From contig CAYXKK010000008.1 in assembly GCA_964465685.1 (NCBI GenBank), positions 4,121 to 68,120 on the forward strand: DNA of 64,000 nt. The letters run 5' to 3'. Under the pieces are notes generated by a model, which ran no database searches, was not told where the DNA came from, and saw nothing but the letters and a program-made list of their open reading frames with translations. Each line of letters begins with the position of its first letter. Position 1 is the first letter of the stretch. The stretch comes from an uncultured Melioribacter sp. (GTDB taxonomy: Bacteria; Bacteroidota; Ignavibacteria; Kapaibacteriales; Kapaibacteriaceae). Of this stretch, positions 2,096 through 63,310 are shown one piece after another. The position numbers were made by a program, and so were the translations under genes.

Positions 2096-2107
2096 TGCTT
2101 AAACGAT

Positions 2108-2131
2108 GGGGTCGGGCTTCGGTCCGACCCC
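2108..2131 (+). other. Intergenic stem-loop with a UUCG tetraloop between two cargo genes
   Basis: GGGGTCGGGC-TTCG-GTCCGACCCC forms a 10-bp stem (one G-U pair) 12 nt after the stop at 2095. No U-tract follows, so it is not a classical terminator. Confidence 0.4.
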
Positions 2132-2177
2132 ACTCTACCGAACCGCAAAAAAACAAGTTGTAAATCTTGGAGTCTCT

Positions 2178-4229: not shown

Positions 4230-4244
4230 TCACGTTTGACAACG

Positions 4245-5387
4245 ATGAAGATCTTGGTGACGATAACGCTGGCCGCCCTTGCGGCGGCCAGCGGAGTCAC
4301 CGCTCAGGACACGTTACTCATTCGAAGCTTTCGGACGATTGATGTGTGTTCCTCTGAACGTCGATGGCTGATCGCCCCGTATCTCGGGAACATCCGTTCT
4401 ATCGACAGTCTAGCGTCCTTTGACATTACGATTGGATTTGATACATCGTTGGTTCGACCAACTGATGTATTGACTGAGAATACACTTTCGTTTGGTGCTA
4501 ACTATCCAGCACAAATGTCTCTTGTTGTCCCTGGTGAAATGAGAATCGCAGGATTCAATATCACTCGCAACATGGTTGGTGATAAGCCAATCTTTGCTGT
4601 CGCAGGATCGTACACCGGAGATTGTGTTGACTCTATTAGGTTCACTTTTCCATGGCCTCCTACATTCAATGAGGAGTTCAAAAAGAAGGTGACCGTCCTA
4701 ACGAGTGAAGAAGTGGGGATTGTTGCTCTTGCTAAAGTTGACAAGTTGCTTGGTCCAAGGTTTAGTGCGGATACAGTGGCGATTGACGGTAAAGATTCGC
4801 TGCGCTCCATCACAACGACCGTGTCATTCGGAACGAGTAACGTGAGCCGAGGAGTTCTAACATGGTCCTTACCTGACTCAACTACAGCGGCAATCGATAC
4901 TGTCATGGCGGATGGAGTAACTGTTGATAGCTTGATTTTGTCAACGATGACTGCAACAGCATATGTCTCGTTTCTCAAAGGTCAGACACCAACAATGTCT
5001 GTCCGATTACGAAACACGACAGTCGAGGCTGAGACACGAACGGTGTTATACACGTCAATGGAAATAGCCGACTCTTGCGCGTGTGTCCGAAGTGGTACAA
5101 GCGATACGCTTCTGGTTGTTCTTACAAATCCAATTGTTTCGATTTCATCTCCTGTCGACGACAACAATGAACGTCTCGATGTAACGAATACATCAGTAAC
5201 GTGCCATTGTCATCATGGGCAGACGAATGAAATCAATGTGTTTACAGTTGCAGGTGAGCGTGTTGCTACGCAACTCTCTTCTTCAACAACAATGAACACG
5301 ATGTCAATCGAAAACCTGCCACCTGGACCGTACATAATTGTTGGGTTCTGTGGTAAAAGAAGCTTTGTGAAACTGAAATTGAAATGA
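4245..5387 (+). CDS. Secreted hypothetical protein with a cohesin-like N-terminal segment and a divergent T9SS-like C-terminus
   Basis: The ATG at 4245 gives the signal peptide MKILVTITLAALAAASGVTAQ. SIDSLASFDITIGFDTSLVRPTDVL resembles the cohesin core. The C-terminus is INVFTVAGERVATQL..LPPGPYIIVGF..VKLKLK. Confidence 0.6.
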   Translation: MKILVTITLAALAAASGVTAQDTLLIRSFRTIDVCSSERRWLIAPYLGNIRSIDSLASFDITIGFDTSLVRPTDVLTENTLSFGANYPAQMSLVVPGEMRIAGFNITRNMVGDKPIFAVAGSYTGDCVDSIRFTFPWPPTFNEEFKKKVTVLTSEEVGIVALAKVDKLLGPRFSADTVAIDGKDSLRSITTTVSFGTSNVSRGVLTWSLPDSTTAAIDTVMADGVTVDSLILSTMTATAYVSFLKGQTPTMSVRLRNTTVEAETRTVLYTSMEIADSCACVRSGTSDTLLVVLTNPIVSISSPVDDNNERLDVTNTSVTCHCHHGQTNEINVFTVAGERVATQLSSSTTMNTMSIENLPPGPYIIVGFCGKRSFVKLKLK

Positions 5388-5422
5388 AGAATCTCTTGAT
5401 CAACTCATCTGAGGAGTTTTCT

Positions 5423-8400: not shown

Positions 8401-8530
8401 CGATGAAGAGAAGACAGCAGGTATCTATGGCTTCGACATGAACGCAGCTTCACTTGCACAAGGTCGCTACATCGTGAAGGTCACGACGAACGGCGCAACA
8501 GCAACAAGCTCGGTCACGGTCGTCCGCTAA
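5423..8530 (+). CDS. Large secreted T9SS cargo protein with a cohesin-like N-terminal segment
   Basis: The ATG at 5423 follows GAGGAG and gives a signal peptide (..GVVLLLAALIGLGSNVLHAQ). LLVPVFIKNCW..IFSFKFKVQFDSTALQLIGV is cohesin-like. CTD: VSPNPASAVGMVNVTVPQSGRVTVALFDAMGQLV..GRYIVKVTT..VTVVR. Confidence 0.75.
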   Translation: MNRRYALWGSGAKIGVVLLLAALIGLGSNVLHAQNKPELPTLSLTGLAGGWETRYYPDGRIWTSKRGPNGDRELLVPVFIKNCWRSTEIFDAFPIFSFKFKVQFDSTALQLIGVDKNGPKRGVQFAPLSCLGKDFEYTVDVARDTTFQRVINAPVQNRLRGKRAIVTAISSKPLPQTGDITQPCDQRPFQELIYLRFRVIADPSIDVESARTPIILTNDTLFYNDFQMGKAIAFPGDGVPGEFAGIGGVDNFFIDNLGQEQVRDPLRPSKPGMIWLEVTDLSPRLAFNLNADPTSRLADSVNGSNGTQWFIVDPITIDYGSSFDDQPNGIGTRDIDFINIAPGTRAYEILVQSDKRWLKFKSFKKGGAGENDPFPQPVREGYVQFMDKGILGTTLGVTPFGDPTVGTRDINLRIICDPNELPNGDEQEVCGTYVGTLSFKSPSLEVSPVHIKVTFIYFRTPYEPNVFDENNNWQRSQEFLGRGITVQVRNSNSPVERTYLTFGVGNRATDQVDTLFGETVYTSALNSFGARWYPRNKEGVDIYQNGLGDLWAGTAQRPRSSSRDIRSIYSDTTLLYTCRFNAGSDLNYPVVVEWDVDEFIPGSDLFIRDTLNGSRFNVNMREGTVLSPTNRRSFTLRDADIKAFTIEYTLPKVAQFPVINKGWNLLSVPVNPSSSNWKSIFRNALTEPVRFSQNIYQQAGNDIAPGVGYFVKYSDELDRTIAGSRIRKIDDQMFSTRLYDGWNTIGSLSSPTSTENVTLLPFGSGAFPAITGDIYGYVTNRGYQAVTEIEPGLGYWIKISGQAYLSLCCGTLGKSGINVSTVRETAKANAMRVTVSDNADNVGDVFVASRGSIETRTVFELPPVPPNGLFDVRFSDQTYINDEVNPTIQLQGATFPVTLTVNNPGRSYVVTNPISGAVLGTIVAGRSNNITITDARTPYIRLMGQEADLTALTVSVSPNPASAVGMVNVTVPQSGRVTVALFDAMGQLVSTIVDEEKTAGIYGFDMNAASLAQGRYIVKVTTNGATATSSVTVVR

Positions 8531-8562
8531 GACGGCAATCGTAATGGTTGAAATCAAAGAAA

Positions 8563-8592
8563 GGGCAGCAGGTAACTGCTGCCCTTTTTTGT
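8563..8592 (+). terminator. Rho-independent terminator after the 5423..8530 cargo gene
   Basis: GGGCAGCAG-GTAA-CTGCTGCCC is a perfect 9-bp stem followed by TTTTTTGTT. Confidence 0.8.
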
Positions 8593-8612
8593 TAACGGCT
8601 ACAGGAAAAGTC

Positions 8613-9389
8613 ATGAGATTGCTCGTAATCATCTCGCTACTAACTCTATCCATCGCAACAGCGATGGGTCAGGAAGTAGCATTTACAATGACTGTCACAA
8701 ACATTACTCCTGGTTCGCGCCCATCAGGTACGTTTACCTTCGGTGCTCATCCTGAGGCTACGAACGGGCTCGATGTTACACTTGGTGAACGTGAGATTCC
8801 TTCGTTGCCCCCTCCAGCAGGTGTGTTCATAATCTACACCATACCACCAACTCCCGATCGAATCTGGCTCAGTCCCAAGGATCTACGCAAGCTCTCAGTG
8901 GATTCATCTGTGCGTCATGATTACGACTTGAACATCACGTGGACTGGTGGAAGGCTTGAGTTGTCAATGAACCAGCGGCTTCCGTCAGGGATCGATTCAG
9001 CGTACATCGTAGATGCTATCACAGACTTTCCGGACAACTTCATCAAGGCTCGTGTTGATTCCGGCATGGTCTATTCTACCGACAATCGTGCGATCACACG
9101 TCTGAAGCTGCTCGTCTGGTACCGACGAACAACTTCGAGCGTGGATGAATCACACGGGTCGTCCGTAGTGATCGCTCCGAATCCATCTACAGATGTTATT
9201 TCCGTAAGTGGATGTGAACCAGGGTCGAATGTGGACATACTTACAGTCGTCGGACATCGTGTTCGATCGTATCAGACTGAGTCAGAGAGTATTCGTCTGC
9301 AAGTGCACGATCTTCCAATCGGTGCGTATGTAATTCGTGTTGTTGACCCACGTGGTCGTGCAACAAACCGTATCATGCTGCGCCAATAA
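8613..9389 (+). CDS. Small secreted T9SS cargo protein, function unknown
   Basis: The ATG at 8613 gives the signal peptide MRLLVIISLLTLSIATAMGQE. CTD: VVIAPNPSTDVISVSG..ILTVVGHRV..IGAYVIRVVD..IMLRQ. Confidence 0.65.
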   Translation: MRLLVIISLLTLSIATAMGQEVAFTMTVTNITPGSRPSGTFTFGAHPEATNGLDVTLGEREIPSLPPPAGVFIIYTIPPTPDRIWLSPKDLRKLSVDSSVRHDYDLNITWTGGRLELSMNQRLPSGIDSAYIVDAITDFPDNFIKARVDSGMVYSTDNRAITRLKLLVWYRRTTSSVDESHGSSVVIAPNPSTDVISVSGCEPGSNVDILTVVGHRVRSYQTESESIRLQVHDLPIGAYVIRVVDPRGRATNRIMLRQ

Positions 9390-50353: not shown

Positions 50354-51118
50354 ATGAGCACTCAAACAATTCTCGACGCTACAGCTTCTCTTCGCGAGCA
50401 GCTTGAACATCATCCCATGTATGCACGTCTCACAACGGCTGAGGCCCTGGCGACGTTTATGGAGCATCACGTGTGGGCCGTGTGGGACTTTATGTCCTTG
50501 CTCAAAGCGCTTCAACGTCACCTCACGTGTGTCGATCTGCCATGGATCCCCACTGGTGATCCAGAGACACGCTTTCTCATTAACGAGATCGTTGTCGGCG
50601 AAGAAAGTGACGTCGACCGTCATGGCACGCGCATGAGTCACTTCGAAATGTACCGTGCTGCAATGAAGGGGCTCGGAGCATCCACCACTGCAATCGACAC
50701 GTTCATTGCGGATCTTCAACGCGGAACACCATGGCACGACGCACTTACTACTGCTGGTGCACCGCCGGCATGTGCTGCATTCGTGCAAGGAACGATGAGC
50801 ATCATTGAGCGCGGCAAGCCGCATGAGATTGCCAGCGTGTTTACCTACGGACGTGAAGATGTGATCCCAACGATGTTCCTTGGCATGCTTGATCACGTCG
50901 CACAGGGTGGACAGCACGTCGATGTTGAGGATCTGCGGTATTATCTACAGCGCCATATCGACGTCGATGGCGATCACCACGGTCCACTCGCCATTCGTAT
51001 GGTGGAACTCCTCTGCGGTAACGATCCCGTGCGGCTTGAAGAAGCACGCGTGGCAGCACATAACGCGCTGCAATGGCGCGTTGAGCTGTGGGATGCGATA
51101 GAGTGTGCCTGTGGGTGA
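50354..51118 (+). CDS. DUF3050-family protein (haem-oxygenase-like fold)
   Basis: HPMYARL..FMEHHVWAVWDFMSLLKALQ..LPWIPTGDP..INEIVVGEESD..SHFEMY matches my recollection of the DUF3050 (MgoB-like) signature. Confidence 0.7.
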   Translation: MSTQTILDATASLREQLEHHPMYARLTTAEALATFMEHHVWAVWDFMSLLKALQRHLTCVDLPWIPTGDPETRFLINEIVVGEESDVDRHGTRMSHFEMYRAAMKGLGASTTAIDTFIADLQRGTPWHDALTTAGAPPACAAFVQGTMSIIERGKPHEIASVFTYGREDVIPTMFLGMLDHVAQGGQHVDVEDLRYYLQRHIDVDGDHHGPLAIRMVELLCGNDPVRLEEARVAAHNALQWRVELWDAIECACG

Positions 51119-51197: not shown

Positions 51198-54100
51198 ATG
51201 CGTATGCATCGTATTGGGGTACTCTTTCTTGCGTTGATCATAGCGTGTACAGGCGTACAAGCTCAGGTGACAACGACTGCTGGTGTGTATGGTGTAGTCA
51301 AGGACGAGGGTGGTCAACCTCTCGCCGGTGCATCAGTCACAATGATCCATGGACCAACAAACACCAAGGTTGGAACCTACGTCCGCAAAGACGGACGTTA
51401 CACACTTACGTCGCTTCGTGTTGGCGGACCGTACACGCTTACCGTTAAGCTCGTTGGTAAGCAGGACTTCTCGCTCACAATTGAGAAGCTTCAACTTGCA
51501 GAGAACCGTCGCGTTGATGTGGTTCTCAAAGAGGGTGCTGTTACTGGTAAGACTGTAACAGTGATTGGTGCACAGTCAGCGATTCAATCGGGTCGCACTG
51601 GTGCATCAACGGAAGTTGATGATCGCGTGATTGCTGCGTTCCCAACAATCTCTCGAAACTTCCAGGACTTTGTCCGCTTTACCCCACAATCTGCTGCAGC
51701 CGGAGCTGGTACTTCTATCGGCGGCCGCAATAACCGCTACAACAACGTGCAAATCGACGGTACGCAGTACAACGATCTGTTTGGTTTGGGATCAAACGGA
51801 ACACCTGGTAGCAGCGCGAACGTCACGCCGATCTCGCTCGATGCTATCGAAGAGTTTCAAGTTCTTGTTGCACCGTATGATGTTCGTCAAGGTCGCTTCA
51901 CAGGCGGCGGTATCAATGCAGTAACGCGCAGTGGTACCAATAAATGGACAGCGTCCGCGTACGGATTCTTCCGCAATCAGAACATGATTGGTGATCTTGT
52001 GTCGACAAACTTTTTGTCACGTGGTACAGACGGTGCAGCATTGCCTGTTGGTGAGTACCGTGATACAACGATTCGCACACCATTCTCATCGTTTTCTGAG
52101 TATCAAGTTGGTGCCCGTGTTGGTGGACCGATCATTCCAGACAAGCTGTTTATGTTTTTGAATGCCGAGAAGACGGGACGTACGCAGCCTCGGCCACAGC
52201 TTGCCTTCCAACAGAATGGTGCACTGAATCCGCTAGTTCGCTCAATCGCAGATACGGTTGGCGATATTCTTCAGACACGCTACGGATACAATCCTGGTGC
52301 CATTGATAACCAGGAAGTCAATCGTCCAAGCACGAAGATCTTTGGTCGCGTCGACTGGAATATTGACGATGCGAATCGCCTCACACTTCGCCACAACTTT
52401 GTCGACGCAAGTGATGATATCTACAATCCGTCGCGCACAGGTGTGCAGTTTGGCAACCGACTTTACACGTTTAACAGTCAGGCCAACAGTACAGTGCTTC
52501 AACTGAATTCGATGCTCTCGCCCGAGATGTCAAATGAAGTGATCGTTGGGTACACGACAATTCGCGACTTCCGGGATATCTCCGGCGATCGGTTCCCATC
52601 TATATCCATCTCAGATTCGCGCATTACAGGTATTAACATCAATGCCGGTTCCGAGAACTTCTCGTTGCGTAATCGCCTCAGCACAGACGTTATTGAAATC
52701 ACGGATAACTTCACGTACACAATGGGAGCGCATACGTTCACAGTTGGTACGCAAAATGAGTTTTTCACATTCGAGAACCTGTTTATCCGCGATAATGCTG
52801 GTACGTGGAGCTTTAACTCCCTGAACGACTTCCGAAATGGAATCGGCGCGCGACTGCAGTATTCGTTTGCACGTCCTGGCTTCGCTTCCGATTGGGCAGC
52901 ACGCTTCTCAACTGCTCAACTTGGCTTCTATGTTCAGGACGAGTGGGAAGTCACGGATCGTCTTCGTCTTACCCTTGGTCTGCGTGCAGACATGCCGCTG
53001 TTCTTCGACAAGGCATCGTACAACCCAACGGCTGACACAATCCGCTACAATGCATCTTCGGCACTGGCAGGGCAGCAACTTGGTCTGAATACGAGTGTTC
53101 TTCCTGGAAGCACAGTACTCTTCTCGCCACGTCTCGGCTTCAACTGGTCGAGTGATGATGAGAAGCCGTGGCAGATCCGCGGTGGTATCGGCATCTTCAC
53201 TGGTCGTATTCCATTTGTGTGGATTTCGAACCAGTACTCAAACACAGGTGTCGAAATCGCTCGACTCGACATTCGTACAACGTCAACGGATACGCTGCGC
53301 TTTGATCCAACCCTTAACCCACTTGACTCAAGCTTCTACAGGCGTGTCGGTAACATCACTGAGCTGAACGTCACAGCTCCTGACTTCAAGATGCCGCAGT
53401 CGCTTCGTATCGATGCCGCAGTTGACAAGGAGGTTGCGGATGGACTCTTCGTCACACTCGAAGGTCTCTACTCGCAAAACATCAACGATATCTACTACCG
53501 TGACATCAATCTTGGTGATCGTCGCGACACAACAGCGTTGGGATCACGTTTGCCAGGAGGTCGTGGTGTCTATGGCACGTATAGCGGCCGTAACACAACT
53601 CCACGTACACAGGTTGGTTCATTCGGAAGCGGTCCGTTCACGAACATCATCCAACTTGGTAACACCTCCCAAGGCTACAGCTATATGTTTTCGGCTCAGG
53701 CAAAGAAGAACTTTGAGAATGGTTGGTTCGCTAGTGTCTTCTATACATACGGTCGTTCGTTCGATCAAAACTCAGGTCTCTCTTCTCAGGCTATCTCGCA
53801 GTGGCGTTTCAACCATACGCCAGATAATCCTAATGAACTCCCTGTCACCCCATCGCTCTTCGATATTCCACATCGCTTCGTCGTGTCCCTTAGCAAGCGC
53901 TTTGAGTATGGTGGTGGTTATGCGACAACGATCAGCGCATTCTATGAACTTCGCTCAGGTCGACCGTTCTCGTATGTATACGATGGTGACTTGAACGCTG
54001 ATGGTCAGACAGAGAACGACCTGCTCTATGTGCCAAAGGACAACAACGATATTCTTCTTGGACGCGTTGTGACGCTCGGTAGCGGTGCGAATCGTCGTGA

Positions 54101-54542
54101 CTCACTCGCACGCGGATCAGCGACAACGTATTCGCAGTTCAATTCGTACATCGAGCGAGATCCATATCTCTCAACCATCCGTGGCCAAGTCGCTGAACGT
54201 TTCTCAGCTCGTGAGCCGTTTGTGCATCAACTCGACCTTCGTCTTGCGCAAGAGATTCCGAATCCGTTTGTCGACGGCCATCGCCTCGAGATAACAGTTG
54301 ACTGTATCAACTTCCTGAACCTTGTAAACAACACGTGGGGTCGCGTACAAACGGTCAATAACAACCGAGAAATGCTCCTTCGTTTCGAGGGATTGGTTAC
54401 GCCGACAATGCTACAAGATGGTACAGCCAATGCCGCAGTTGGTACGCCAATCTTCAGCTACACTGACAAGAAGAACCCATTCGGTTATGATGATTTGCTG
54501 TCACGCTACCAGATTCAGGTGGGTGTGCGGTACTCGTTCTAA
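51198..54542 (+). CDS. TonB-dependent receptor with an N-terminal carboxypeptidase-regulatory-like domain
   Basis: A signal peptide is followed by GVYGVVKDEGGQPLAGASVTM (CarboxypepD_reg), then a plug and a long barrel. The terminal ..VGVRYSF ends in the aromatic residue typical of TBDRs. Confidence 0.85.
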   Translation: MRMHRIGVLFLALIIACTGVQAQVTTTAGVYGVVKDEGGQPLAGASVTMIHGPTNTKVGTYVRKDGRYTLTSLRVGGPYTLTVKLVGKQDFSLTIEKLQLAENRRVDVVLKEGAVTGKTVTVIGAQSAIQSGRTGASTEVDDRVIAAFPTISRNFQDFVRFTPQSAAAGAGTSIGGRNNRYNNVQIDGTQYNDLFGLGSNGTPGSSANVTPISLDAIEEFQVLVAPYDVRQGRFTGGGINAVTRSGTNKWTASAYGFFRNQNMIGDLVSTNFLSRGTDGAALPVGEYRDTTIRTPFSSFSEYQVGARVGGPIIPDKLFMFLNAEKTGRTQPRPQLAFQQNGALNPLVRSIADTVGDILQTRYGYNPGAIDNQEVNRPSTKIFGRVDWNIDDANRLTLRHNFVDASDDIYNPSRTGVQFGNRLYTFNSQANSTVLQLNSMLSPEMSNEVIVGYTTIRDFRDISGDRFPSISISDSRITGININAGSENFSLRNRLSTDVIEITDNFTYTMGAHTFTVGTQNEFFTFENLFIRDNAGTWSFNSLNDFRNGIGARLQYSFARPGFASDWAARFSTAQLGFYVQDEWEVTDRLRLTLGLRADMPLFFDKASYNPTADTIRYNASSALAGQQLGLNTSVLPGSTVLFSPRLGFNWSSDDEKPWQIRGGIGIFTGRIPFVWISNQYSNTGVEIARLDIRTTSTDTLRFDPTLNPLDSSFYRRVGNITELNVTAPDFKMPQSLRIDAAVDKEVADGLFVTLEGLYSQNINDIYYRDINLGDRRDTTALGSRLPGGRGVYGTYSGRNTTPRTQVGSFGSGPFTNIIQLGNTSQGYSYMFSAQAKKNFENGWFASVFYTYGRSFDQNSGLSSQAISQWRFNHTPDNPNELPVTPSLFDIPHRFVVSLSKRFEYGGGYATTISAFYELRSGRPFSYVYDGDLNADGQTENDLLYVPKDNNDILLGRVVTLGSGANRRDSLARGSATTYSQFNSYIERDPYLSTIRGQVAERFSAREPFVHQLDLRLAQEIPNPFVDGHRLEITVDCINFLNLVNNTWGRVQTVNNNREMLLRFEGLVTPTMLQDGTANAAVGTPIFSYTDKKNPFGYDDLLSRYQIQVGVRYSF

Positions 54543-54566: not shown

Positions 54567-54605
54567 GCGGCCATATCCTACAAAGGATATGGCCGCATTT
54601 GCTTT
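54567..54605 (+). terminator. Rho-independent terminator after the TonB-dependent receptor
   Basis: GCGGCCATATCC-TACAAA-GGATATGGCCGC is a perfect 12-bp stem followed by ATTTGCTTT. Confidence 0.75.
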
Positions 54606-54685
54606 GGCCGAAGCTTTGTAAAATCATTGGCCAGTGTCGTGACCCCCGTCACACAGCCTTACTTGCGTGCAACGTAGATTCGCAC

Positions 54686-55288
54686 ATGAACAATCCATGG
54701 GACGAGCGATACTCTACGGCCGACTATGTGTATGGCACTGAGCCAAACGACTTCTTACGCGAGCAAGCACATCGCATTACGCCGGGCGGACGTGTGCTGT
54801 GTATTGCTGATGGTGAGGGACGGAATGGAGTGTATCTAGCCCGTCTGGGATATGATGTCACAAGCGTCGATGCGTCGCGCGTAGGTCTGGAAAAAGCTGC
54901 CGCACTCGCAGCGTCACACAACGTCTCAATAACGACTGTTCATGCTAATCTCGCAGACTTCGGCTTCGGCGTCGAACAATGGGATGCCGTGGTGTCGATA
55001 TTCTGTCACCTTCCCCAAGAACTCCGTTCGCGTGTACACGCCGCAATTCCCGCATCACTCCGTCACAACGGTGTTATGATTCTCGAGGCCTACACGGTCG
55101 ATCAGCTATCGCACCGGACCGGAGGACCACCTGTGCCCGAGTTGATGATGTCGGAAGATCAGCTCAAACACGACTTCACATCGCTACTCGTCATTGCGTG
55201 CGACGAGCGCACACGCATGATACACGAAGGCACACTTCATAATGGTTTGAGCGCCACAGTTCAGTTGGTCGCACAACGAAAGGGATAG
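54686..55288 (+). CDS. Class I SAM-dependent methyltransferase (TehB-like)
   Basis: Start is set at ATG 54686 (MNNPWDERYS..); the upstream part of the track ORF runs through the terminator. Motif I is RVLCIADGEGRNGVYLA. Confidence 0.75.
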   Translation: MNNPWDERYSTADYVYGTEPNDFLREQAHRITPGGRVLCIADGEGRNGVYLARLGYDVTSVDASRVGLEKAAALAASHNVSITTVHANLADFGFGVEQWDAVVSIFCHLPQELRSRVHAAIPASLRHNGVMILEAYTVDQLSHRTGGPPVPELMMSEDQLKHDFTSLLVIACDERTRMIHEGTLHNGLSATVQLVAQRKG

Positions 55289-55292
55289 CATC

Positions 55293-56132
55293 ATGGAAAC
55301 AGCATCAGACATCAAGGAAATGGTTCGTTCGAAGTACGGCGAGATCGCTGCACAGTCGAAAGAACAGAACGCTGCATCCTGCTGTGGCGCCGGCGAATGC
55401 TCTACAGTCGACTATACCATCTTCGCTGAAGACTACTCGAAGATGAAGGGCTACCTCGCTGATGCCGATCTAGCGCTTGGCTGCGGCGTACCAACAGAGT
55501 TCGCGCAAATTCATGAGGGCGACGTTGTTGTCGATCTTGGATCAGGTGCTGGCAACGATGCCTTCGTTGCTCGTGCGATCACGGGAGAATCAGGCAAGGT
55601 GATCGGCATTGATATGACGCCACAGATGATCGACAAAGCCCGCGAAAACGCCGATAAACTGGGCTTTAATAACGTTGAGTTCCGACTCGGCGATATCGAG
55701 AACATCCCGATCACTGCAAACCGCGCCGACGTCGTCATTAGCAACTGCGTGCTCAACCTTGTGCCGGATAAGCGTCGCGCCTTCGAAGAGATGTTTCGCA
55801 TCCTCAAGCCTGGCGGTCACTTCAGCGTAAGCGATGTGGTGTTGCGCGGAGAACTGCCAGACGGACTCCGCAACGACGCCGAGATGTATGCTGGTTGCGT
55901 CTCTGGTGCTATTCAGATTGAAACGTACCTACAACACCTGCATGACGTTGGTTTTGCGACGATCACCGTGCAGAAGCAGAAAGCAATTGAACTGCCTGAT
56001 GACATTCTCGCGAACTACCTCACCACAGAAGAGATCGCTACGATGCGCGCCGGACAGACAGGTATTCTGAGCATCACGGTCTATGGTGAAAAGCCTGCGG
56101 CAACGTGCGCTCCTGGAGCTGGTTGCTGCTAG
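55293..56132 (+). CDS. arsM: Arsenite S-adenosylmethionine methyltransferase (ArsM-like)
   Basis: Cys pair CCGAGEC, motif I VVDLGSGAGNDAF, SNCVLNLVPDK and YAGCVSGA (the three catalytic-Cys contexts), and a Cys-rich C-terminus CAPGAGCC. Confidence 0.8.
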   Translation: METASDIKEMVRSKYGEIAAQSKEQNAASCCGAGECSTVDYTIFAEDYSKMKGYLADADLALGCGVPTEFAQIHEGDVVVDLGSGAGNDAFVARAITGESGKVIGIDMTPQMIDKARENADKLGFNNVEFRLGDIENIPITANRADVVISNCVLNLVPDKRRAFEEMFRILKPGGHFSVSDVVLRGELPDGLRNDAEMYAGCVSGAIQIETYLQHLHDVGFATITVQKQKAIELPDDILANYLTTEEIATMRAGQTGILSITVYGEKPAATCAPGAGCC

Positions 56133-56133
56133 G

Positions 56134-56973
56134 TCAGAACCGCAGTCCGTACCAGACAACATTCGGCAATATCTGCACAGCTGGTGCTGGAAGGTGATAC
56201 AGATGCAACACGCGAGCAATATCACGCAACCATGTCGGGAGGTTGGGAATCCGATGAAGTTGCCAATCGAGCGAGAGTACAACAACATGCTCGCCCCCTC
56301 CACGACCATCAAGATTGCGCACCGAGTGACCGATGGCAACACCAAGCCATGGTGGTAGATATGCTTGTACAGAGCGCGGTGCAAGGTCGTGCACATTCAT
56401 CGCGAGCCAATGGGTTGTCGATGTGTAGTCGTCGATGATGGCGTTGTACGCCCCCTGACGAAATGCATTGGAAGGCCAGAAGGATATCTGAAGGTCGAAC
56501 GCCCGAAGTGCCGGTACATAGTGCTGTGCAACAGGCAGTGCAGCGCCGATGGTGTTGGCTCCGATGTCGCCCCACGAGAATCCATAGTCACGCGAGAATC
56601 CGTCACGCACTTCAATGTAGGTCTGATAGGTCATCGCAACGCCAAAGCCCCACCATGCAGCAGACCCCGAGTCGAGTCCGCACCAACGCATGAGATCACC
56701 ATACACCGTTGAAGCCATATAGGCGAACGTAGCATGTCCATACTTATCGGCGTTCAATGCGTACGTATAGTCTTGCGACGTGTTGATATGGAACGGAACA
56801 CGCTTGCCTTTCCACCAGAGATCATTCAGCATGCCGTGCCCAACGGCAAAGCCACCGACAGTTGCGCCCGCAACTATGCCGACGCGAAGAGGATCAATGC
56901 GTGTTGAGTCGTGCTGTGCAGATATGCTCGATACGCATGCAAGTAGGACAGCGATGATGACGAGTGACCGCAT
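56134..56973 (-). CDS. Hypothetical envelope protein, DUF2279/YfiM-like
   Basis: Signal peptide MRSLVIIAVLLACVSSISAQ, plus LNDLWWKG and NADKYGHATFAY, which resemble DUF2279. The assignment is tentative. Confidence 0.5.
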   Translation of the reverse strand: MRSLVIIAVLLACVSSISAQHDSTRIDPLRVGIVAGATVGGFAVGHGMLNDLWWKGKRVPFHINTSQDYTYALNADKYGHATFAYMASTVYGDLMRWCGLDSGSAAWWGFGVAMTYQTYIEVRDGFSRDYGFSWGDIGANTIGAALPVAQHYVPALRAFDLQISFWPSNAFRQGAYNAIIDDYTSTTHWLAMNVHDLAPRSVQAYLPPWLGVAIGHSVRNLDGRGGGEHVVVLSLDWQLHRIPNLPTWLRDIARVLHLYHLPAPAVQILPNVVWYGLRF

Positions 56974-58304
56974 TAGAGCTTCGCTACAATACCGAGTATC
57001 GCACCAATCCGAAGTAGCTGTCGATTGACACGCGTGCCGGGTGTGAGGTTAATGTAGGCAGCATACTCAGATGGGGGAGCACTGTCGACAAAACCTCCAC
57101 CAACGATTCCCCCTACGGTAATCTCGAGCGGGTCGATCGCGAAGTTCCAGCCTATCGTGCCGTGGTAGAGATCGAAATTCACAATGGCATTCGATCCCGT
57201 ATCCTCTGCGCGGAGGAATGATCCATCGCGAATCAGCGAAATGTAGAACGATGTACGCTCTGAGATCTTCGTCCTCATTCCCACAGCCACGTTGATGATT
57301 GCATATCGATTAATGACTTCGCCATAGGTAAACATCGTATCAGGAATGATCGATCGGAACGGCGCGGGGGAAAGGGGCTTGTAAGGATCCAGTGAAGAAA
57401 ACCACTCCGCTGTGAAGTAGATCGATGTTGTCTCGCTGCGCCAGGCTGCACCGAGAGCAATTGACATCGGTGTACGATATTCCGCTGATAGATTCTGCTG
57501 AATGTCACCATACAGAAGCGACATAGTATCTCCACGTTGCGCGTATTGCGAGGTGCGCGTCTCTCCGCGTGTGGTGAGGACATGCAACGCAGGAGTTGTG
57601 ATGGTGACTCCGATACTCACTGGATGGCCGTCATAGTAGTATCCGAGCTTAGCAAGCACACGAGCTGTACCGTATACTTCGTACTCAGCAAGGCTCGCAG
57701 TTTCAGCTCGACCACTTGTAAGTTTGGCAGATGTGAGAATCGAGGAATACTCCGAGCTTACGGTCGAAACATACGTCGTGATTCCAACCGCGTGAACACG
57801 ATCGAGTGTGCGCGACCATGTAAGTCCAAACCACGAGTCGTTGAGGTCACGAAGAATCGTACCCGATACGCTGTAACCCGTCATCGGACCTGTCTTGCTC
57901 GTCGCCGTGCCGTCAAGATCGAGTGAAACATCTGTTCGCTTCAGGTACGATAACACGAGAGATCGTGAACCAAACAATCGCACAGGAAGATTGATGGCAA
58001 CAAGCGTTGGAAGTGGCTCGGCATTGCCTGATCGAAGTCGGAAATCGTAATCAGTGGTTGTGATAGTAGAGCGTGTCCAATTCAACGAGATAGCTGATTG
58101 TACGGCACTTGTATCGGGGTATAGCGCCAGCGATCCTGGATTGTAAAACGTCGACGAAAGGTCAGTTGTTGAACCGACGACAGCACCACCGAGCAGCCAT
58201 GACTCCGCGCCGTATTGATTTGTCCAATAATGCGCGTCCTGCGCTACGAGTGACGTCGTGCAGACCATGAGCACAAGCAGATAGCGCGTGATGTATTGCA
58301 TCAT
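56973..58304 (-). CDS. Hypothetical outer-membrane beta-barrel protein
   Basis: The ATG at 58304 overlaps the upstream TGA (ATGA). Signal peptide MMQYITRYLLVLMVCTTSLVAQD, a beta-rich sequence, and the terminal ..ILGIVAKL. Confidence 0.5.
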   Translation of the reverse strand: MMQYITRYLLVLMVCTTSLVAQDAHYWTNQYGAESWLLGGAVVGSTTDLSSTFYNPGSLALYPDTSAVQSAISLNWTRSTITTTDYDFRLRSGNAEPLPTLVAINLPVRLFGSRSLVLSYLKRTDVSLDLDGTATSKTGPMTGYSVSGTILRDLNDSWFGLTWSRTLDRVHAVGITTYVSTVSSEYSSILTSAKLTSGRAETASLAEYEVYGTARVLAKLGYYYDGHPVSIGVTITTPALHVLTTRGETRTSQYAQRGDTMSLLYGDIQQNLSAEYRTPMSIALGAAWRSETTSIYFTAEWFSSLDPYKPLSPAPFRSIIPDTMFTYGEVINRYAIINVAVGMRTKISERTSFYISLIRDGSFLRAEDTGSNAIVNFDLYHGTIGWNFAIDPLEITVGGIVGGGFVDSAPPSEYAAYINLTPGTRVNRQLLRIGAILGIVAKL

Positions 58305-58888
58305 TCGTTCAGGATGGCGAAGTTCTCCCATCCACGAAGATCAAAGTGCCACCACTCGCTTGGTAAAACATCGAAGCCTGCTGCATTCATGATCTGCTCG
58401 AGCAGACGGCGGTTTGCGAGGACGTGCTCCGGAAGATCCGTGTACGTTGCTGCCGCACGGTCCGTGAACTCGTCGTAGCCGGTTCCCATGTCGAGCTCAA
58501 CACCGGTGCTGTCGCAGAGCGTCAGATCGAGTGCACAGCCACGGTTGTGCCGTGATCCCTTGTCTGGATCTGCGACGTATCGCTCGTCGGGTACAATGCT
58601 CCACATCAACCGCTGAATGCTGAGCGGACGATATGCATCGTAGACTTTGAGTTGGAGTCCGCGTGAACGCGCGTCGCGCTGAGCCACGAGCAATCGCTCT
58701 GCCATTGCACGGCGAGCATAAAGCGTATCCGATGTGTAGAGGATGCGCTTCGTGAAGTTATCAGACGTAGCGTACCGAACATCGGTCAGCAGATCAGGTA
58801 CAACGTCGTGAATGCGAACCAGCACGGTGTCGCGTGGTTCAGTCTCAAAGGTCATGGACATTACGGCTAGTACGAGAAACGAGAGCAT
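58301..58888 (-). CDS. ddpX: D-alanyl-D-alanine dipeptidase (VanX/DdpX, peptidase M15D)
   Basis: Motifs YDAYRP, zinc-site SRHNRGCALDL and EWWHFD. An N-terminal hydrophobic leader is present. Confidence 0.85.
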   Translation of the reverse strand: MLSFLVLAVMSMTFETEPRDTVLVRIHDVVPDLLTDVRYATSDNFTKRILYTSDTLYARRAMAERLLVAQRDARSRGLQLKVYDAYRPLSIQRLMWSIVPDERYVADPDKGSRHNRGCALDLTLCDSTGVELDMGTGYDEFTDRAAATYTDLPEHVLANRRLLEQIMNAAGFDVLPSEWWHFDLRGWENFAILNE

Positions 58889-58901: not shown

Positions 58902-60212
58902 TTACTGCTTTACAATCAGCGACCTCGAAGTTGTCGTTGCTGTTGATGACTCAACCGTATAGACGCCGCTTGGCAGGTTGCTGATGTCCACCGATGAGGA
59001 TACCTCGCTTCGTACTACACGTCCGTCAATGGTGCGAACAACAACAGAAGTGCCTCGGTGATGAAGCACATCCACGACGGGATTCGGCCATGTGAGTGGC
59101 ATATCTACATCATTCGCTTCGGTAACGGACGTAGCACATGGCAGTGCTGATATCAATTCCCACATCTGACGGTCGTACACAACCTGCATCGGCTCGCTTC
59201 CCGTCGGTGCATTGCCCATGCGAATGATCACCATGTTCTGACTCGGTATCACGTAGAGCTTTTGATCGTTCTTCCCGAGCCCCATGTACATATCGGAGGG
59301 GGCCTGTGGGATCAATGGACCCGGCAGGGATGCCTCAATGCCAGGGAGCATCATGCGATCCTTACCATTAAGCCAGAAGAGATACCCGTATGATGGATTG
59401 AGGTTCTGTGATGTTGATACCATGTCGGTGATATACGACTGATCGCGGATCACCGTATCGCCGTTCCACACGCCCTTCGCGAGCAGCAGCAGACCAAATC
59501 GTGCCATCGAACGAGGCACTGACCACAGCACGCCATTGATAAAGATGCCGCCCATACCAATCGGTCGCGCAAGATTCTGCGTGTAGTAGCTTGTGAAGCT
59601 CGACTTCGATGCAGCGGCAACGATGTCTTGAAGCTTAAGGTAGGCTGGGTTGTAGTAATCCCAGATCGTGCCAGGGGGCGCGCGATATGTGAAACAGTCT
59701 GGTGTGCGACAATCAGTATCATCAGGACCACGTCCTTCCACGCCTGTTGTCATCGTGAGATGATGCCACACAGTGATTGTATCTTCCTGCGCAGGCGTCA
59801 TCATGCTCCATCCATTGCCGAGATAGCGTGAACTTGGAGCTTCGATATCAAGGAGCTTCTGTTGCTGTGCAATGCCAACGAGTGCAGCCGTTACTGTCTT
59901 TCCTGCTGATGCCCAGTACCATAGGCTATCGCGCTGAAAGGAGCCGAAGTACCACTCTCGAACGATCTTACCGTCCTTGAGAACGATGAACGCTTTCGTG
60001 TAGGTCTTCTCGAGGAATCTGTACAGTGAATCCATCCGATCGCTACACCAGTTTAGCTCACTCGGCGACATAGTCTCCCACACGCCAGTGCTTTGCGCTG
60101 GCGGGAAATACAACTGCTGTGCTGGAGCTGATACACTCACGACGAGCGTGAGAAGAAGCGCAAGAATACCGCTATGGCTTTGCGTATTTCGGATTCGTGA
60201 GATAAGCTTCAT
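58902..60212 (-). CDS. Beta-lactamase/DD-peptidase-family serine hydrolase with a T9SS C-terminal domain
   Basis: The ATG at 60212 gives the signal peptide ..GILALLLTLVVSVSAPAQQ. Motifs are SxxK in WASAGKT and YxN in DYYNP. CTD: LTWPNPVVDVLH..VRTIDGRVV..GVYTVES..LIVKQ. The 5' end overlaps the upstream gene by 41 nt. Confidence 0.75.
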   Translation of the reverse strand: MKLISRIRNTQSHSGILALLLTLVVSVSAPAQQLYFPPAQSTGVWETMSPSELNWCSDRMDSLYRFLEKTYTKAFIVLKDGKIVREWYFGSFQRDSLWYWASAGKTVTAALVGIAQQQKLLDIEAPSSRYLGNGWSMMTPAQEDTITVWHHLTMTTGVEGRGPDDTDCRTPDCFTYRAPPGTIWDYYNPAYLKLQDIVAAASKSSFTSYYTQNLARPIGMGGIFINGVLWSVPRSMARFGLLLLAKGVWNGDTVIRDQSYITDMVSTSQNLNPSYGYLFWLNGKDRMMLPGIEASLPGPLIPQAPSDMYMGLGKNDQKLYVIPSQNMVIIRMGNAPTGSEPMQVVYDRQMWELISALPCATSVTEANDVDMPLTWPNPVVDVLHHRGTSVVVRTIDGRVVRSEVSSSVDISNLPSGVYTVESSTATTTSRSLIVKQ

Positions 60213-61254
60213 CGGTGAGCGTCCTGAGGAATGCAACAAGATCGGCAACGTCAGACTCACTAAGACCGAGACCAGGTTTAAGACTGAACTGCAAAAGAAT
60301 GTCGACTGTCGATGACTGCTTCACACCAGAGGAGTAGTGGCGCACCACGTCTTCGAGATTTGTAAAGCGTCCATCGTGCATGTAGGGGGCTGTCACTGCA
60401 ACATTGCGAAGGGTGGGTACCTTAAACTTTGCACGGTCATACGGGTTCATTGTGACGCGCTCACGACCGATGTCTCGGAACGATGCATCATCGTCGAGAC
60501 CGTTGTTCATGTACCGATCATTGGTGAAGTTCGGTCCGCCATGGCAATGAAAACACTCGCCAGATTTCACCTTACCAGTCGGATCGAACTCATTGAAGAA
60601 CAGATCCTGTCCGCGCCTCTCTTGTGCCGTGAATGTGGCTTCACCACGCTGCACCTTGTCCCACTTGCTGTTGCCAGAGACAATCGTAAGCATGAACTGC
60701 TCCATTGCAATGCCAATGCGTTCGGCAGTAACCGTATCTGAACCGAATGCACGGACAAACTGATCACGATAGGCGGATTTCGACGACAGTGTACGCACGA
60801 CATTCTCGAGTGTGTTATCCATTTCGAGTGTGTCCTCAATCGGGATCAGCGCTAGCTGACGCAGTGTCGATGCGCGACCATCCCAAAAGAAGCCGCGTCG
60901 GTGCCATCCGAGGTTTGCAATCGACATTGCCTGACGTGTTCCTTCAAGACCACGAATGCCGACGCTATAGGTGCGTCTGTCGGACAACCCATCGGCTTGA
61001 ACATGGCACGACGCACAACTCTGCGAGCCGTCGCGAGAAAGCGCAGGTTCGTAAAACAACATCCGTCCAAGCTCAACGCGTTGCTGCGTAAGTGGATAGT
61101 CGGTTGGAAGTGGCATCGTTTGAAATCCATACGGAAAGGTCGATGCATCCAACATGTATGGCGTTGGATCATACTCCGGCGTTGGCAGTGGTGCCGACGT
61201 ATCGGTACACGCCGTAAGCGCGCATGCGAGCGATAGTGCCAGGAGGAACTTCAT
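60172..61254 (-). CDS. Di-haem cytochrome c peroxidase family lipoprotein, MauG/MbnH-like (paralogue 2)
   Basis: Lipobox LACALTAC, two CxxCH motifs (CASCH, CFHCH), and the family block FKVPTLRNVAVTAPYMHDG..LEDVVRHY. Confidence 0.85.
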   Translation of the reverse strand: MKFLLALSLACALTACTDTSAPLPTPEYDPTPYMLDASTFPYGFQTMPLPTDYPLTQQRVELGRMLFYEPALSRDGSQSCASCHVQADGLSDRRTYSVGIRGLEGTRQAMSIANLGWHRRGFFWDGRASTLRQLALIPIEDTLEMDNTLENVVRTLSSKSAYRDQFVRAFGSDTVTAERIGIAMEQFMLTIVSGNSKWDKVQRGEATFTAQERRGQDLFFNEFDPTGKVKSGECFHCHGGPNFTNDRYMNNGLDDDASFRDIGRERVTMNPYDRAKFKVPTLRNVAVTAPYMHDGRFTNLEDVVRHYSSGVKQSSTVDILLQFSLKPGLGLSESDVADLVAFLRTLTDEAYLTNPKYAKP

Positions 61255-62249
61255 TCACGAAACCGCGGATCGTTCGAAAAACCTTCATCGGTGAGGCTGC
61301 GCAGAAAGGCCTCGAGGTCGTCACACTCGTCGTCGCGAAGTCCCAATGGAGCAATGCGTGCGTCGGTTGCGGGGTGACCCATCCCGCCGCGATTGTAGCG
61401 GTCGATCACCTCGCGTAGCGAAGATATCGAGCCGTTGTGCATATACGGTGCGGTAATCCCCACATTACGCAGTGATGGCACCTTAAACATGTAGCGGTCG
61501 GACTCCTTGTTTGTCAAGCGATACCGTCCTACATCGGTGTAGGTTTCCAGTGCGCCATTGTTTGTGATTTCGTGATTTGTGTACAAGAAGCCGCCATGAC
61601 AGGATGTGCATCCAGCGCGACTGCTCATAAACAGTGTTCGTCCACGTTCTTCCTGTGCGGTGAGGCGGTTCACGTCTGCACGTGAGCGTCCACTCACCAG
61701 TGTTCGCTCAAAGCTTGCAATGGCGCGTGTGATCACATATGCATCAATGTCACGTTGGTATGCGCTCCGACTCAACGTCTGCACCATCGAGTCCTTCTTG
61801 AGTCTCGCAACCACATCGAGCATGTTCATATCGAACTCATTGTGCTCCTGCACTGGAACCAATACTTGCATTTCGAGTGTGGGGACGCCCCCTTCACGCA
61901 TGAAATAGGGCTGATAGCCGACGTTGGCCAGTGACGGAGCATTGCGTGTTCCAATCCGCTCCTCAACACCGATACTCGTAGCACGTCCGTCGGTGAACGC
62001 CAGCGACGGGTTGTGGCATGAGGCACAAGACAGCGTACGTGTGCGGGATAGCTCCTTCGAGAAAAACAGGAACTTCCCGAGGCGCACACGCTCGGGCGTT
62101 GGTTGATTATCGGACGGGTACACTTGCTCCGTGAAGCCCGGAGGGACATCTACAAGTGCGATAGGAGGCTCTGTGCTGTGCTCTGTCGAACAACCTATTG
62201 CAACCAGCGCGAGCGCTATCAGACTACCGAAGAATAACAACCGGTGCAT
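61251..62249 (-). CDS. Di-haem cytochrome c peroxidase family lipoprotein, MauG/MbnH-like (paralogue 1)
   Basis: Lipobox LVAIGC, two CxxCH motifs (CASCH, CTSCH), and the block FKVPSLRNVGITAPYMHNG..LREVIDRY. Confidence 0.85.
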   Translation of the reverse strand: MHRLLFFGSLIALALVAIGCSTEHSTEPPIALVDVPPGFTEQVYPSDNQPTPERVRLGKFLFFSKELSRTRTLSCASCHNPSLAFTDGRATSIGVEERIGTRNAPSLANVGYQPYFMREGGVPTLEMQVLVPVQEHNEFDMNMLDVVARLKKDSMVQTLSRSAYQRDIDAYVITRAIASFERTLVSGRSRADVNRLTAQEERGRTLFMSSRAGCTSCHGGFLYTNHEITNNGALETYTDVGRYRLTNKESDRYMFKVPSLRNVGITAPYMHNGSISSLREVIDRYNRGGMGHPATDARIAPLGLRDDECDDLEAFLRSLTDEGFSNDPRFRE

Positions 62250-63186
62250 GGTGTGTTGTGCCCGAAGCGGTCGTAACCACCAATGTGTATGTTCCCGCAG
62301 CTACAGACGAAAGATCCCACGAGGTCCGATGATCGTTCGGAAGGTGGAGCGGTAGAGCTGTTCCACATGCATCAATCAACTGAGCATGTGTTAGCTGCAT
62401 GTTCTGTGCGGCAAGCGTAAGCTGACCAGATGTTGGCGTCGGCCAAACGAGTAATTCTTGCGATTCCGCGTACTCAGCGACCCCTGTGGTCGGCGAGGTG
62501 AAGACGCGAGTTGCCATGTTATCCGACATCACAACCGTCTCTTCGCCATAACCGTGGAAGATTAGTCCGAAGGACACATCGAGATTGCGAAACAGCGCGC
62601 TATAATCAGCTGCCAAGATGATATCGACTCCCGTAGCAGTCTCACGTGTGGCTACAGGTAACGTGACCTTGCGGTAGAGCTCGTTGCCTACTGTGTGCAC
62701 CTGAACATCTGTTGAAATCACGTCTCTCGTAGTTCCCGACGATCCCTCGACTGCGAGGAAGCGATATCCCGCCGCCCAACCCCAGTGCATTGTCGGGTTC
62801 TTCAATGCGAGTGGATGTTCAGGAGGGTAGAGTGTTGGATCGAGGTGATTGCGCTTTTTGTCGACACCGACGTGGAATTCCAGCGCTTCGATCCGTGTGA
62901 CATCAAGTGATCCGAGCACATATCGGTCTTGACCCAGCGCGTCGACGAGCACGTAGACATCGCTAAGGGGCGTGCGCTTCCCACCATCGTGGATCACGGT
63001 AAGCTCAGCCAGGTAGTACTTCAGGAATCGTGGCTTGAAAAACCAGCTGCCGTCATCCATGGAGTACGTTGCACCTGATCGGAGCGCCTGACCCTGCATG
63101 GAGTGGTTGATCAACAGGGAAATCTCGCCGGCTTGAGCAGTGAACAAGCCAAGGAGGAACGCTACTAGGATTGTGGTTGTTCGCAT
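62224..63186 (-). CDS. MbnP-like (WxW motif) protein fused to a T9SS C-terminal sorting domain
   Basis: Signal peptide MRTTTILVAFLLGLFTAQA; FLKYYLAELTVIHDGG and MHWGWAAGYRF (WxW). The gene sits directly upstream of the di-haem MbnH-like genes. CTD: LVWPTPTSGQLTL..GTYTLVVTT..VVILR. Confidence 0.55.
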   Translation of the reverse strand: MRTTTILVAFLLGLFTAQAGEISLLINHSMQGQALRSGATYSMDDGSWFFKPRFLKYYLAELTVIHDGGKRTPLSDVYVLVDALGQDRYVLGSLDVTRIEALEFHVGVDKKRNHLDPTLYPPEHPLALKNPTMHWGWAAGYRFLAVEGSSGTTRDVISTDVQVHTVGNELYRKVTLPVATRETATGVDIILAADYSALFRNLDVSFGLIFHGYGEETVVMSDNMATRVFTSPTTGVAEYAESQELLVWPTPTSGQLTLAAQNMQLTHAQLIDACGTALPLHLPNDHRTSWDLSSVAAGTYTLVVTTASGTTHHAPVVILR

Positions 63187-63242
63187 AGGGCTGTTCTGAC
63201 GGTGGGTGCGGGTGAAAAGTTACGGTATTTCACTTCACAAAT

Positions 63243-63269
63243 CACGTGTTGGAAAGCCCTTAAACACGT
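63243..63269. promoter_or_regulatory. Inverted repeat in the divergent promoter region between the MbnP-like operon and the desaturase gene
   Basis: CACGTGTT-N12-AACACGT matches at 7 of 8 positions and is centred about 70 nt from the minus-strand ATG (63186) and about 55 nt from the plus-strand ATG (63311). Confidence 0.3.
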
Positions 63270-63310
63270 AGTTTGCAACTCGAATTCCAGGTCAACAAAA
63301 GGGATAGTGC

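Follow-up and report, generated by a model that had tools for sequence, protein, structure and literature searches.

The closest described relatives of the system reported here are MbnP and MbnH of Methylosinus trichosporium OB3b (structures 7L6G and 6E1C; NCBIfam models TIGR04052 and TIGR04039). When it is co-expressed with MbnH, MbnP has a kynurenine at residue 174, formed from Trp174 of a conserved WxW motif, and its copper site consists of one His, one Met, a solvent ligand, and kynurenine 174 (review PMC11951088). MbnP/MbnH has so far been proteobacterial, periplasmic, and tied to methanobactin and TonB transporters, and its physiological role is open. We analyzed a three-gene cassette in a 64,000-nt stretch of a contig from an uncultured Melioribacter sp. 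(the window; all coordinates are positions within it). The three open reading frames (ORFs) lie on the minus strand and overlap their neighbors by 26 nt (genes 1 and 2) and 4 nt (genes 2 and 3). Gene 1 (62224..63186, 320 aa) codes for a secreted protein with an MbnP fold and a C-terminal sorting domain (CTD) of the type IX secretion system (T9SS). Gene 2 (61251..62249, 332 aa) and gene 3 (60172..61254, 360 aa) code for MbnH-like di-haem lipoproteins, here called T1 and T2. We consider it slightly better than an even bet (probability about 0.55) that the cassette is a conserved three-gene version of the MbnP/MbnH "metallo-mystery pair" in the Fibrobacterota–Chlorobiota–Bacteroidota (FCB) group and works by the mechanism proposed below.

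The cassette shares with MbnP/MbnH the substrate fold, the M-x-W-x-W motif, the positions of an Asn-His pair and a further His, a partner di-haem enzyme with Tyr at the sixth-ligand position, and adjacent, co-oriented genes. It differs from that pair in several respects. Gene 1 is ~16% identical to MbnP 7L6G, and the FCB protein has another C-terminal third and carries a T9SS sorting domain in addition. Where MbnP has a single enzyme partner, the cassette has two distinct ones, each a lipoprotein, of which one has no inter-haem Trp. MbnT transporter and methanobactin genes are absent. New in the FCB variant are the T9SS address, the presence of two enzyme paralogues of ancient origin, and a Trp-less clade of enzymes.

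MopE of Methylococcus capsulatus and CorA of Methylomicrobium album are surface or secreted kynurenine-copper proteins that are co-transcribed with di-haem peroxidases (PMC3912023). These systems (MopE/SACCP and CorA/CorB) are the closest functional precedent for an extracellular oxidized copper protein with a MauG-like di-haem partner. Unlike gene 1, MopE and CorA have an unrelated fold, two His and kynurenine as ligands, and an export route other than T9SS. Unlike the cassette, they have one enzyme per substrate and occur in methanotrophic Gammaproteobacteria. Neither protein (2VOV, 4BZ4) matched gene 1 in PDB sequence searches or among the 50 best Foldseek matches.

The three cassette proteins

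Gene 1 begins with a typical Sec signal peptide (residues 1–19, 63130..63186), MRTTTILVAFLLGLFTAQA, with cleavage after AQA and before Gly. The signal was read directly from the sequence, and in the structure model it is an N-terminal helix of low confidence. The MbnP-like domain follows (residues 20–232, 62491..63129). The Pfam MbnP model PF20243 matches residues 20–204 with 91.2 bits (gathering cut-off 27, E = 1e-25). A proteobacterial MbnP alignment was assembled from 80 mbnH loci fetched with most of the MbnH 6E1C sequence, rebuilt from a printed alignment; MbnP genes were extracted from upstream of mbnH, and W.W..G..F was present in 70. Comparison of these sequences with 37 aligned homologues of gene 1 using hhalign gave 99.3% probability (E = 4e-20) over 184 columns, covering residues 15–207 of gene 1. 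An AlphaFold (AF2) model built on the family alignment has a mean predicted local distance difference test (pLDDT) score of 89. The top six Foldseek matches of this model are the six chains of 7L6G (E ~1e-8, probability 1.00, template modeling [TM] score 0.43–0.47); the next has E = 1e-3, which leaves 7L6G as the sole significant PDB match. The link to MbnP rests on Pfam, hhalign, and Foldseek together, as PDB sequence searches alone are insufficient.

The 7L6G chain begins at residue 26 of the 325-aa Methylosinus MbnP and is gap-free up to the motif M172-A-W174-N-W176, and this numbering identifies the modified residue as the first Trp of WxW. Gene 1 reads MHWGWAAGYRF at residues 133–143. In the hhalign alignment, M133, W135, and W137 of its WxW motif (M133-H134-W135-G136-W137, 62776..62790) pair with M172, W174, and W176, N113-H114 with N156-H157, and H164 with H207. 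These gene 1 residues are invariant or nearly so among the 37 FCB family members, in which N113, H114, D116, P117, M133, H134, W135, W137, Y141, F143, H164, and H211 are the family invariants. From these alignments, W135 is the predicted kynurenine precursor, M133 is a candidate copper ligand, and H114 and/or H164 are candidate His ligands. The earlier note, made from the sequence alone, had described a signal peptide, the MHWGWAAGYRF segment, and an MbnP-like WxW protein. Direct reading of the sequence bears out the first two, the PF20243 match supports the third (the score with TIGR04052 is taken up below), and W135 pairs with the modified Trp174.

The C-terminus of gene 1 is a beta-sandwich tail of roughly 75 residues (residues 245–320, 62227..62454). 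Searched singly, it scores 22.2 bits with PF18962 (cut-off 27) and 21.5 bits with TIGR04183 (cut-off 23). The family profile matches solved T9SS CTDs (8GLK_D with E = 1e-7, also 8GLJ_D and gingipain CTDs), most gene 1 homologues have a precomputed PF18962 match, and the tail of the model superposes on the translocon-bound RemA-CTD 8GL6_D with a TM score of 0.76. Taken together, the evidence for a type-A CTD is convincing. The type-A domain that the earlier note called "clear" is convincing at the family level and less than clear from the single sequence, which is below both cut-offs; every other statement that note made about the sequence holds. Its view that a CTD on the substrate is unusual did not survive the homologue and locus surveys, which show it to be the usual domain arrangement across a large FCB family.

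About ten other ORFs in the window have T9SS-type tails, some of them above threshold, including 5384..8530 (PF18962, 29.1 bits) and 58902..60260 (TIGR04183, 25.3 bits). Five consecutive genes on the plus strand at 29..9389 have such tails (FlgD_ig, He_PIG, Por_Secre_tail). Judged from this run, the organism is a heavy user of type IX secretion.

Genes 2 and 3 each have a lipobox (AIGC with Cys20 and LTAC with Cys16, respectively) and two CxxCH haem motifs. The motifs are C75ASCH and C214TSCH in gene 2 (62013..62027 and 61596..61610) and C80ASCH and C234FHCH in gene 3 (61003..61017 and 60541..60555). The Pfam CCP_MauG domain is matched with 150 bits by gene 2 and 173 bits by gene 3. TIGR04039 (MbnH) is the best NCBIfam model for both, with 244.2 and 232.1 bits against 177 and 180 bits for MauG, and MbnH 6E1C is the best PDB match of both (2e-42 and 2e-47). 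After the PYMH[ND]G block, gene 2 reads PYMHNGSISSLREVIDRY (...VIDRY) and gene 3 reads PYMHDGRFTNLEDVVRHY (...VVRHY). In HMMER alignments, Tyr285 of gene 2 (61395..61397) and Tyr307 of gene 3 (60334..60336) coincide with the Tyr of MbnH 6E1C (VIDIY) and with the ligand Met in classical peroxidases (3O5C AVNTM, 2C1U AVKIM, 9QDT VKLM). Because MbnH is the best model and structure and Tyr occupies the Met-ligand position, genes 2 and 3 are by sequence MauG/MbnH-type enzymes and not ordinary peroxidases. ORF reading and these alignments with MbnH and classical peroxidases confirm what the earlier note had said of the gene order, coordinates, and overlaps, the two haem motifs per lipoprotein, the Tyr in both enzymes, and their MauG/MbnH-like character. 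Gene 1 thus has an MbnP match, its WxW Trp aligns with the modified residue, and neither enzyme aligns a Met ligand, the three points on which that note had staked its proposal.

A neighbor-joining tree was constructed from 128 cassette enzymes together with MbnH, MauG, and peroxidases; this fast distance method is rough, and the tree was used for the two-clade split and not for deeper branching order. It separates the cassette enzymes cleanly into T1, represented here by gene 2 and first in order, and T2, represented by gene 3 and second in order; three loci of this set have the reverse order. T1 and T2 are ~38% identical to each other, and T1 is 40% and T2 38% identical to proteobacterial MbnH. 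By these sequence comparisons they are two ancient orthologous clades, not local duplicates. A recent tandem duplication was ruled out by the ~38% identity and by the orthologues that each has across the phylum. The earlier note was right that the enzymes are paralogues; the duplication it described is not a local event, and the two ancient clades are paired in ~80% of informative loci. Two CxxCH motifs are present in 127 of the 128 clade members, and Tyr occupies the Met-ligand position in at least 90% of T1 and of T2. A lipobox is found in 53/64 and 55/64 members of the two clades, which are predicted lipoproteins with 1.5–2 acidic residues just past the Cys.

T1 and T2 diverge in their inter-haem segment. 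T2 resembles peroxidases and MauG in having FWDGR there (in gene 3 at 60874..60888, with inter-haem W124), whereas T1 has rEGGVPTLEMQ without a Trp (in gene 2 REGGVPTLEMQ at 61866..61898, in place of FWDGR). Gene 2 contains no Trp at all, as is the case for 19/64 T1 proteins, and the T1 median is one. A Trp-free T1 is odd in a family whose chemistry is thought to need Trp hole-hopping. MauG would resemble the cassette enzymes in being a His/Tyr di-haem oxidase that acts through bis-Fe(IV) on Trp of a separate periplasmic protein, pre-methylamine dehydrogenase, and shares its inter-haem Trp with T2, but its substrate and product (tryptophan tryptophylquinone) are unrelated. Trp93 of MauG mediates inter-haem charge resonance, and BthA of Burkholderia thailandensis (6NX0), a CCP_MauG protein with a Tyr ligand, has Ser257 at this position and still forms a stable bis-Fe(IV) state (PMC6405878). 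With BthA as precedent, T1 need not be inactive. BthA is only a distant relative (E about 1e-14). It differs further in the residue that stands in for the Trp, in lacking an MbnP partner, and in having no protein substrate that is known.

Distribution and metal-gene neighborhood of the cassette

Gene 1 homologues that match it in length and domains were found in Ignavibacteria, Kapaibacteria, and Saprospiraceae, and the closest named relative is Candidatus Kapaibacterium (68%). One genome per GTDB species was then surveyed for gene 1 relatives with P[TS]MHWGW[AT]. At least 580 species-level genomes encode such an MbnP-CTD relative, nearly all of them in the FCB group, with carriers in Ignavibacteria/Kapaibacteria, Saprospiraceae, Flavobacteriales, and Chitinophagales. 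The same trio was seen in four loci with unrelated flanks. Among 84 MbnP-seeded loci, two full di-haem genes lie directly downstream in 63, the second copy is cut by the contig end or broken in 4, a single di-haem gene is present in 7, and three have none. The enzyme is T1 in six of the seven single-enzyme loci. Clustering of all flanking ORFs left just two general components, MbnP in 83 loci and 140 di-haem genes in 76 loci. The next cluster reaches at most 22 loci and reflects synteny within a lineage, as with the downstream beta-lactamase-CTD and M15 dipeptidase genes.

An independent seed from T1, EGGVPTLEMQ (~0.07 chance matches expected), recovered at least 120 loci, all in the FCB group. 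Among the T1-seeded loci listed, MbnP is directly upstream of T1 in 88 of 104 informative loci, and the enzyme order is swapped in 8. The survey for MbnP-CTD fusions that the earlier note had proposed thus finds the cassette to be the norm in FCB bacteria. Some members already have the database names "MbnP family protein" or "T9SS type A sorting domain-containing protein." We found no description of the cassette, or of a link between T9SS, copper, and cytochrome c peroxidase, in the searchable literature.

In 27 of the 84 loci, mostly from Bacteroidia and Saprospiraceae, at least one copper or heavy-metal gene lies no more than 6 kb from the cassette. These genes code for a copper P1B-ATPase (TIGR01511, 570 bits), CusA/CzcA resistance-nodulation-division (RND) proteins, HMA-MauE, a double-HMA protein, an HMA-AraC regulator, and HYC_CC_PP proteins, and the recurrent ones are efflux or tolerance types. 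Their presence supports copper or heavy-metal biology independently of homology, and lends independent support to the earlier proposal that the gene 1 system may be a surface-displayed, oxidized, metal-binding one. The small HYC_CC_PP family genes (NF047658) occur within 6 kb in 13 loci (L120, L133, L143, L150, L154, L160, and others), mostly just upstream of MbnP and together with copper ATPase and HMA genes.

Proposed mechanism and alternatives

We propose that the gene 1 protein would be exported by Sec and fold in the periplasm into an MbnP-type beta-sandwich. The two lipid-anchored His/Tyr di-haem enzymes would oxidize Trp135 there, by way of a high-valent haem derived from H2O2 or O2. 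The product would be kynurenine, as MbnH makes from Trp174 of MbnP, and it would complete a metal site with Met133 and a conserved His (H164 and/or H114). The type-A CTD would then take the folded, modified protein through the T9SS to the cell surface or the medium, where it may bind copper; capture for uptake and capture for tolerance are both possible. We infer the kynurenine chemistry, the order of periplasmic modification before export, copper as the metal, and a division of labor between the enzymes.

The cassette represents a large sister system of MbnP/MbnH, spread over the species-level genomes counted above, with a surface-addressed substrate protein and two distinct enzymes kept as a pair. 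With the proposed chemistry, it would link protein-derived cofactors to type IX secretion and supply bacteria that are abundant in the environment and in wastewater with a candidate protein for handling copper outside the cell. T1, without an inter-haem Trp and often Trp-free, would be a natural experiment on MauG-type catalysis.

Sequence and structure prediction support this interpretation as far as they reach; several observations weigh against it. TIGR04052 (the NCBIfam MbnP equivalog, "four-Cys motif protein") scores 39.5 bits with gene 1, below its cut-off of 140, and the match is confined to residues 90–154. PDB searches by sequence, using phmmer with gene 1 and hmmsearch with the 37-member family profile, miss MbnP 7L6G. 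Neither gene 2 nor gene 3 reaches the TIGR04039 cut-off of 362.85 bits. With all three proteins under their equivalog cut-offs, the cassette represents a divergent subfamily and not an orthologue. Gene 1 is free of Cys in its MbnP domain and the 37 FCB members have no conserved Cys column, whereas Methylosinus MbnP has six, and H66, H134, and H211 are extra invariant His in FCB MbnP; the metal site may therefore differ from that of proteobacterial MbnP. T1 is without the inter-haem Trp that MauG uses, and the proposal does not account for the need for a second enzyme. Clustering of the flanks of the 84 loci found no conserved TonB-dependent transporter or other uptake gene next to the cassette, and no copper gene adjoins the cassette in the window.

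The same chemistry could instead serve copper tolerance, with the exported kynurenine protein sequestering copper at or beyond the outer membrane beside efflux and without an importer. We regard this as possible, though on balance doubtful. It would account for the efflux and resistance types among the recurrent neighbors (the P1B-ATPase, CusA/CzcA RND, HMA chaperone-like, and HMA-AraC genes) and for the lack of a conserved TonB-dependent receptor. The window also has a TehB-like methyltransferase followed by an arsenite methyltransferase (54599..56132, plus strand; NF008823, 361 bits) on the strand opposite to the cassette and 4–5 kb from it, which may be a metal(loid) detoxification context. 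However, proteobacterial MbnPH pairs adjoin MbnT importers (PMC3621798), MopE and CorA are copper-repressed acquisition proteins (PMC3912023), and in two thirds of the loci the 6-kb surroundings contain no metal gene; a gene neighborhood is weak evidence for direction. Other alternatives concern the product. T1 and T2 are ancient, about equally far from MbnH, and different in their inter-haem segments; both W135 and W137 are invariant, the invariant H66, H134, Y141, and H211 are absent from proteobacterial MbnP, and MauG is a precedent for multi-step synthesis of a Trp cofactor. These features would fit two enzymes that do different chemistry, so that both WxW Trp are modified or a cross-linked or quinone-type Trp cofactor forms in a surface redox enzyme, an idea to which we give little credence. 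Proteobacterial MbnP also has an invariant WxW, yet only Trp174 is reported to be modified, by one MbnH (PMC11951088); seven loci have a single enzyme. We find it quite improbable, too, that two non-redundant di-haem enzymes, one of them Trp-free, jointly install a Trp-derived cofactor, either kynurenine or a more elaborate one using both WxW Trp, on a T9SS-exported protein that acts as a "chalkophore" or surface redox center. If so, it would be the first protein-derived cofactor on T9SS cargo and a copper route widespread in environmental Bacteroidota.

The division of labor may also be asymmetric, with one paralogue as the Trp oxidase and the other in a supporting role, whether as a partner that handles electrons or peroxide, as a subunit of a heterodimer, or as a peroxidase that gives protection; this seems unlikely to us. 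Classical bacterial cytochrome c peroxidases work as dimers, T1 does not have the Trp through which holes pass between the two haems of MauG, and the 4-nt overlap of genes 2 and 3 suggests translational coupling. On the other hand, neither T1 nor T2 has lost the Tyr ligand or either of the haem motifs, a lone enzyme is usually the Trp-less T1, and BthA forms bis-Fe(IV) with Ser at the Trp position (PMC6405878). The place of oxidation is a separate matter. If the di-haem lipoproteins stood on the cell surface, like SACCP beside MopE, they could act after T9SS export, and we attach a low probability to this. The predicted lipoproteins of both clades have acidic residues after the lipoprotein Cys, which loosely resemble Bacteroidota surface-lipoprotein export signals. 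SACCP does co-localize with MopE on the surface (PMC3912023), but the window proteins show the acidic motif only weakly (C-STEHSTE and C-TDTSAP), and attachment of haem c is periplasmic. Finally, genes 2 and 3 share the CCP_MauG domain with ordinary periplasmic cytochrome c peroxidases and match peroxidases in the PDB down to E = 1e-43, as would be expected if they detoxified H2O2 beside an unrelated secreted protein. We rejected this reading as scarcely credible: Tyr replaces the Met ligand throughout most of both clades, the best models are MbnH and MauG, and a gene for an MbnP-fold protein stays tightly linked to them in lineages whose flanks are unrelated.

Flanking genes and other loci

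A divergent intergenic region (63187..63310) separates gene 1 from a fatty-acid desaturase gene and is the presumed promoter region of the cassette. The desaturase, a His-box ORF found by six-frame translation, starts at ~63310 on the plus strand and runs off the window; a desaturase neighbor is also present at locus L001. A promoter and terminator scan of the cassette gave nothing above shuffled sequences, and the sigma-70 consensus is ill-suited to this phylum. With the desaturase as upstream neighbor, the locus agrees with the earlier note that no TonB-dependent transporter is adjacent. A 1114-aa CarboxypepD_reg-type TonB-dependent receptor is encoded at 51198..54542 (plus strand), preceded by a DUF3050 gene at 50354..51118 (plus strand). 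This receptor was rejected as a partner because it is 5.6 kb away, on the opposite strand, and not conserved elsewhere. DUF3050 recurs in 10 related loci, at no more than 6 kb from the cassette, and the receptor does not recur.

Downstream of gene 3, a minus-strand ORF (58902..60260) codes for a beta-lactamase-fold protein with its own T9SS tail, above the TIGR04183 cut-off, and overlaps the 3' end of gene 3 by 41–89 nt depending on the start codon. A beta-lactamase-CTD gene follows the cassette in 20 Ignavibacteria/Kapaibacteria loci and not in other lineages. The same-strand run continues at 56134..58888 with a D-Ala-D-Ala dipeptidase (NF007557, 184 bits), a 452-aa protein (56973..58331) without a Pfam or NCBIfam match, and a DUF2279 protein, a set that is syntenic only among close relatives. 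The beta-lactamase-CTD and M15 genes were rejected as members of the system because they recur in at most 20–22 loci of one lineage.

The cultured strain Lewinella cohaerens DSM 23179 has a complete cassette of MbnP-CTD, T1, and T2 (locus L246, NZ_KB903551, 4190..7435), which makes the cassette directly testable. A different arrangement is found on a plasmid of Chondrinema litorale (locus L087, NZ_CP111054, 6938..11273), where two MbnH/MbnP pairs are mirrored around a small Cys/His-rich gene. The enzymes on this plasmid are T2-like or intermediate, and its MbnPs have no T9SS tail. They are lipoproteins in which the Cys is followed by DDDD(D), resembling the Bacteroidota surface-lipoprotein export signal, and their sequences hint that surface display of MbnP may be general in the phylum.

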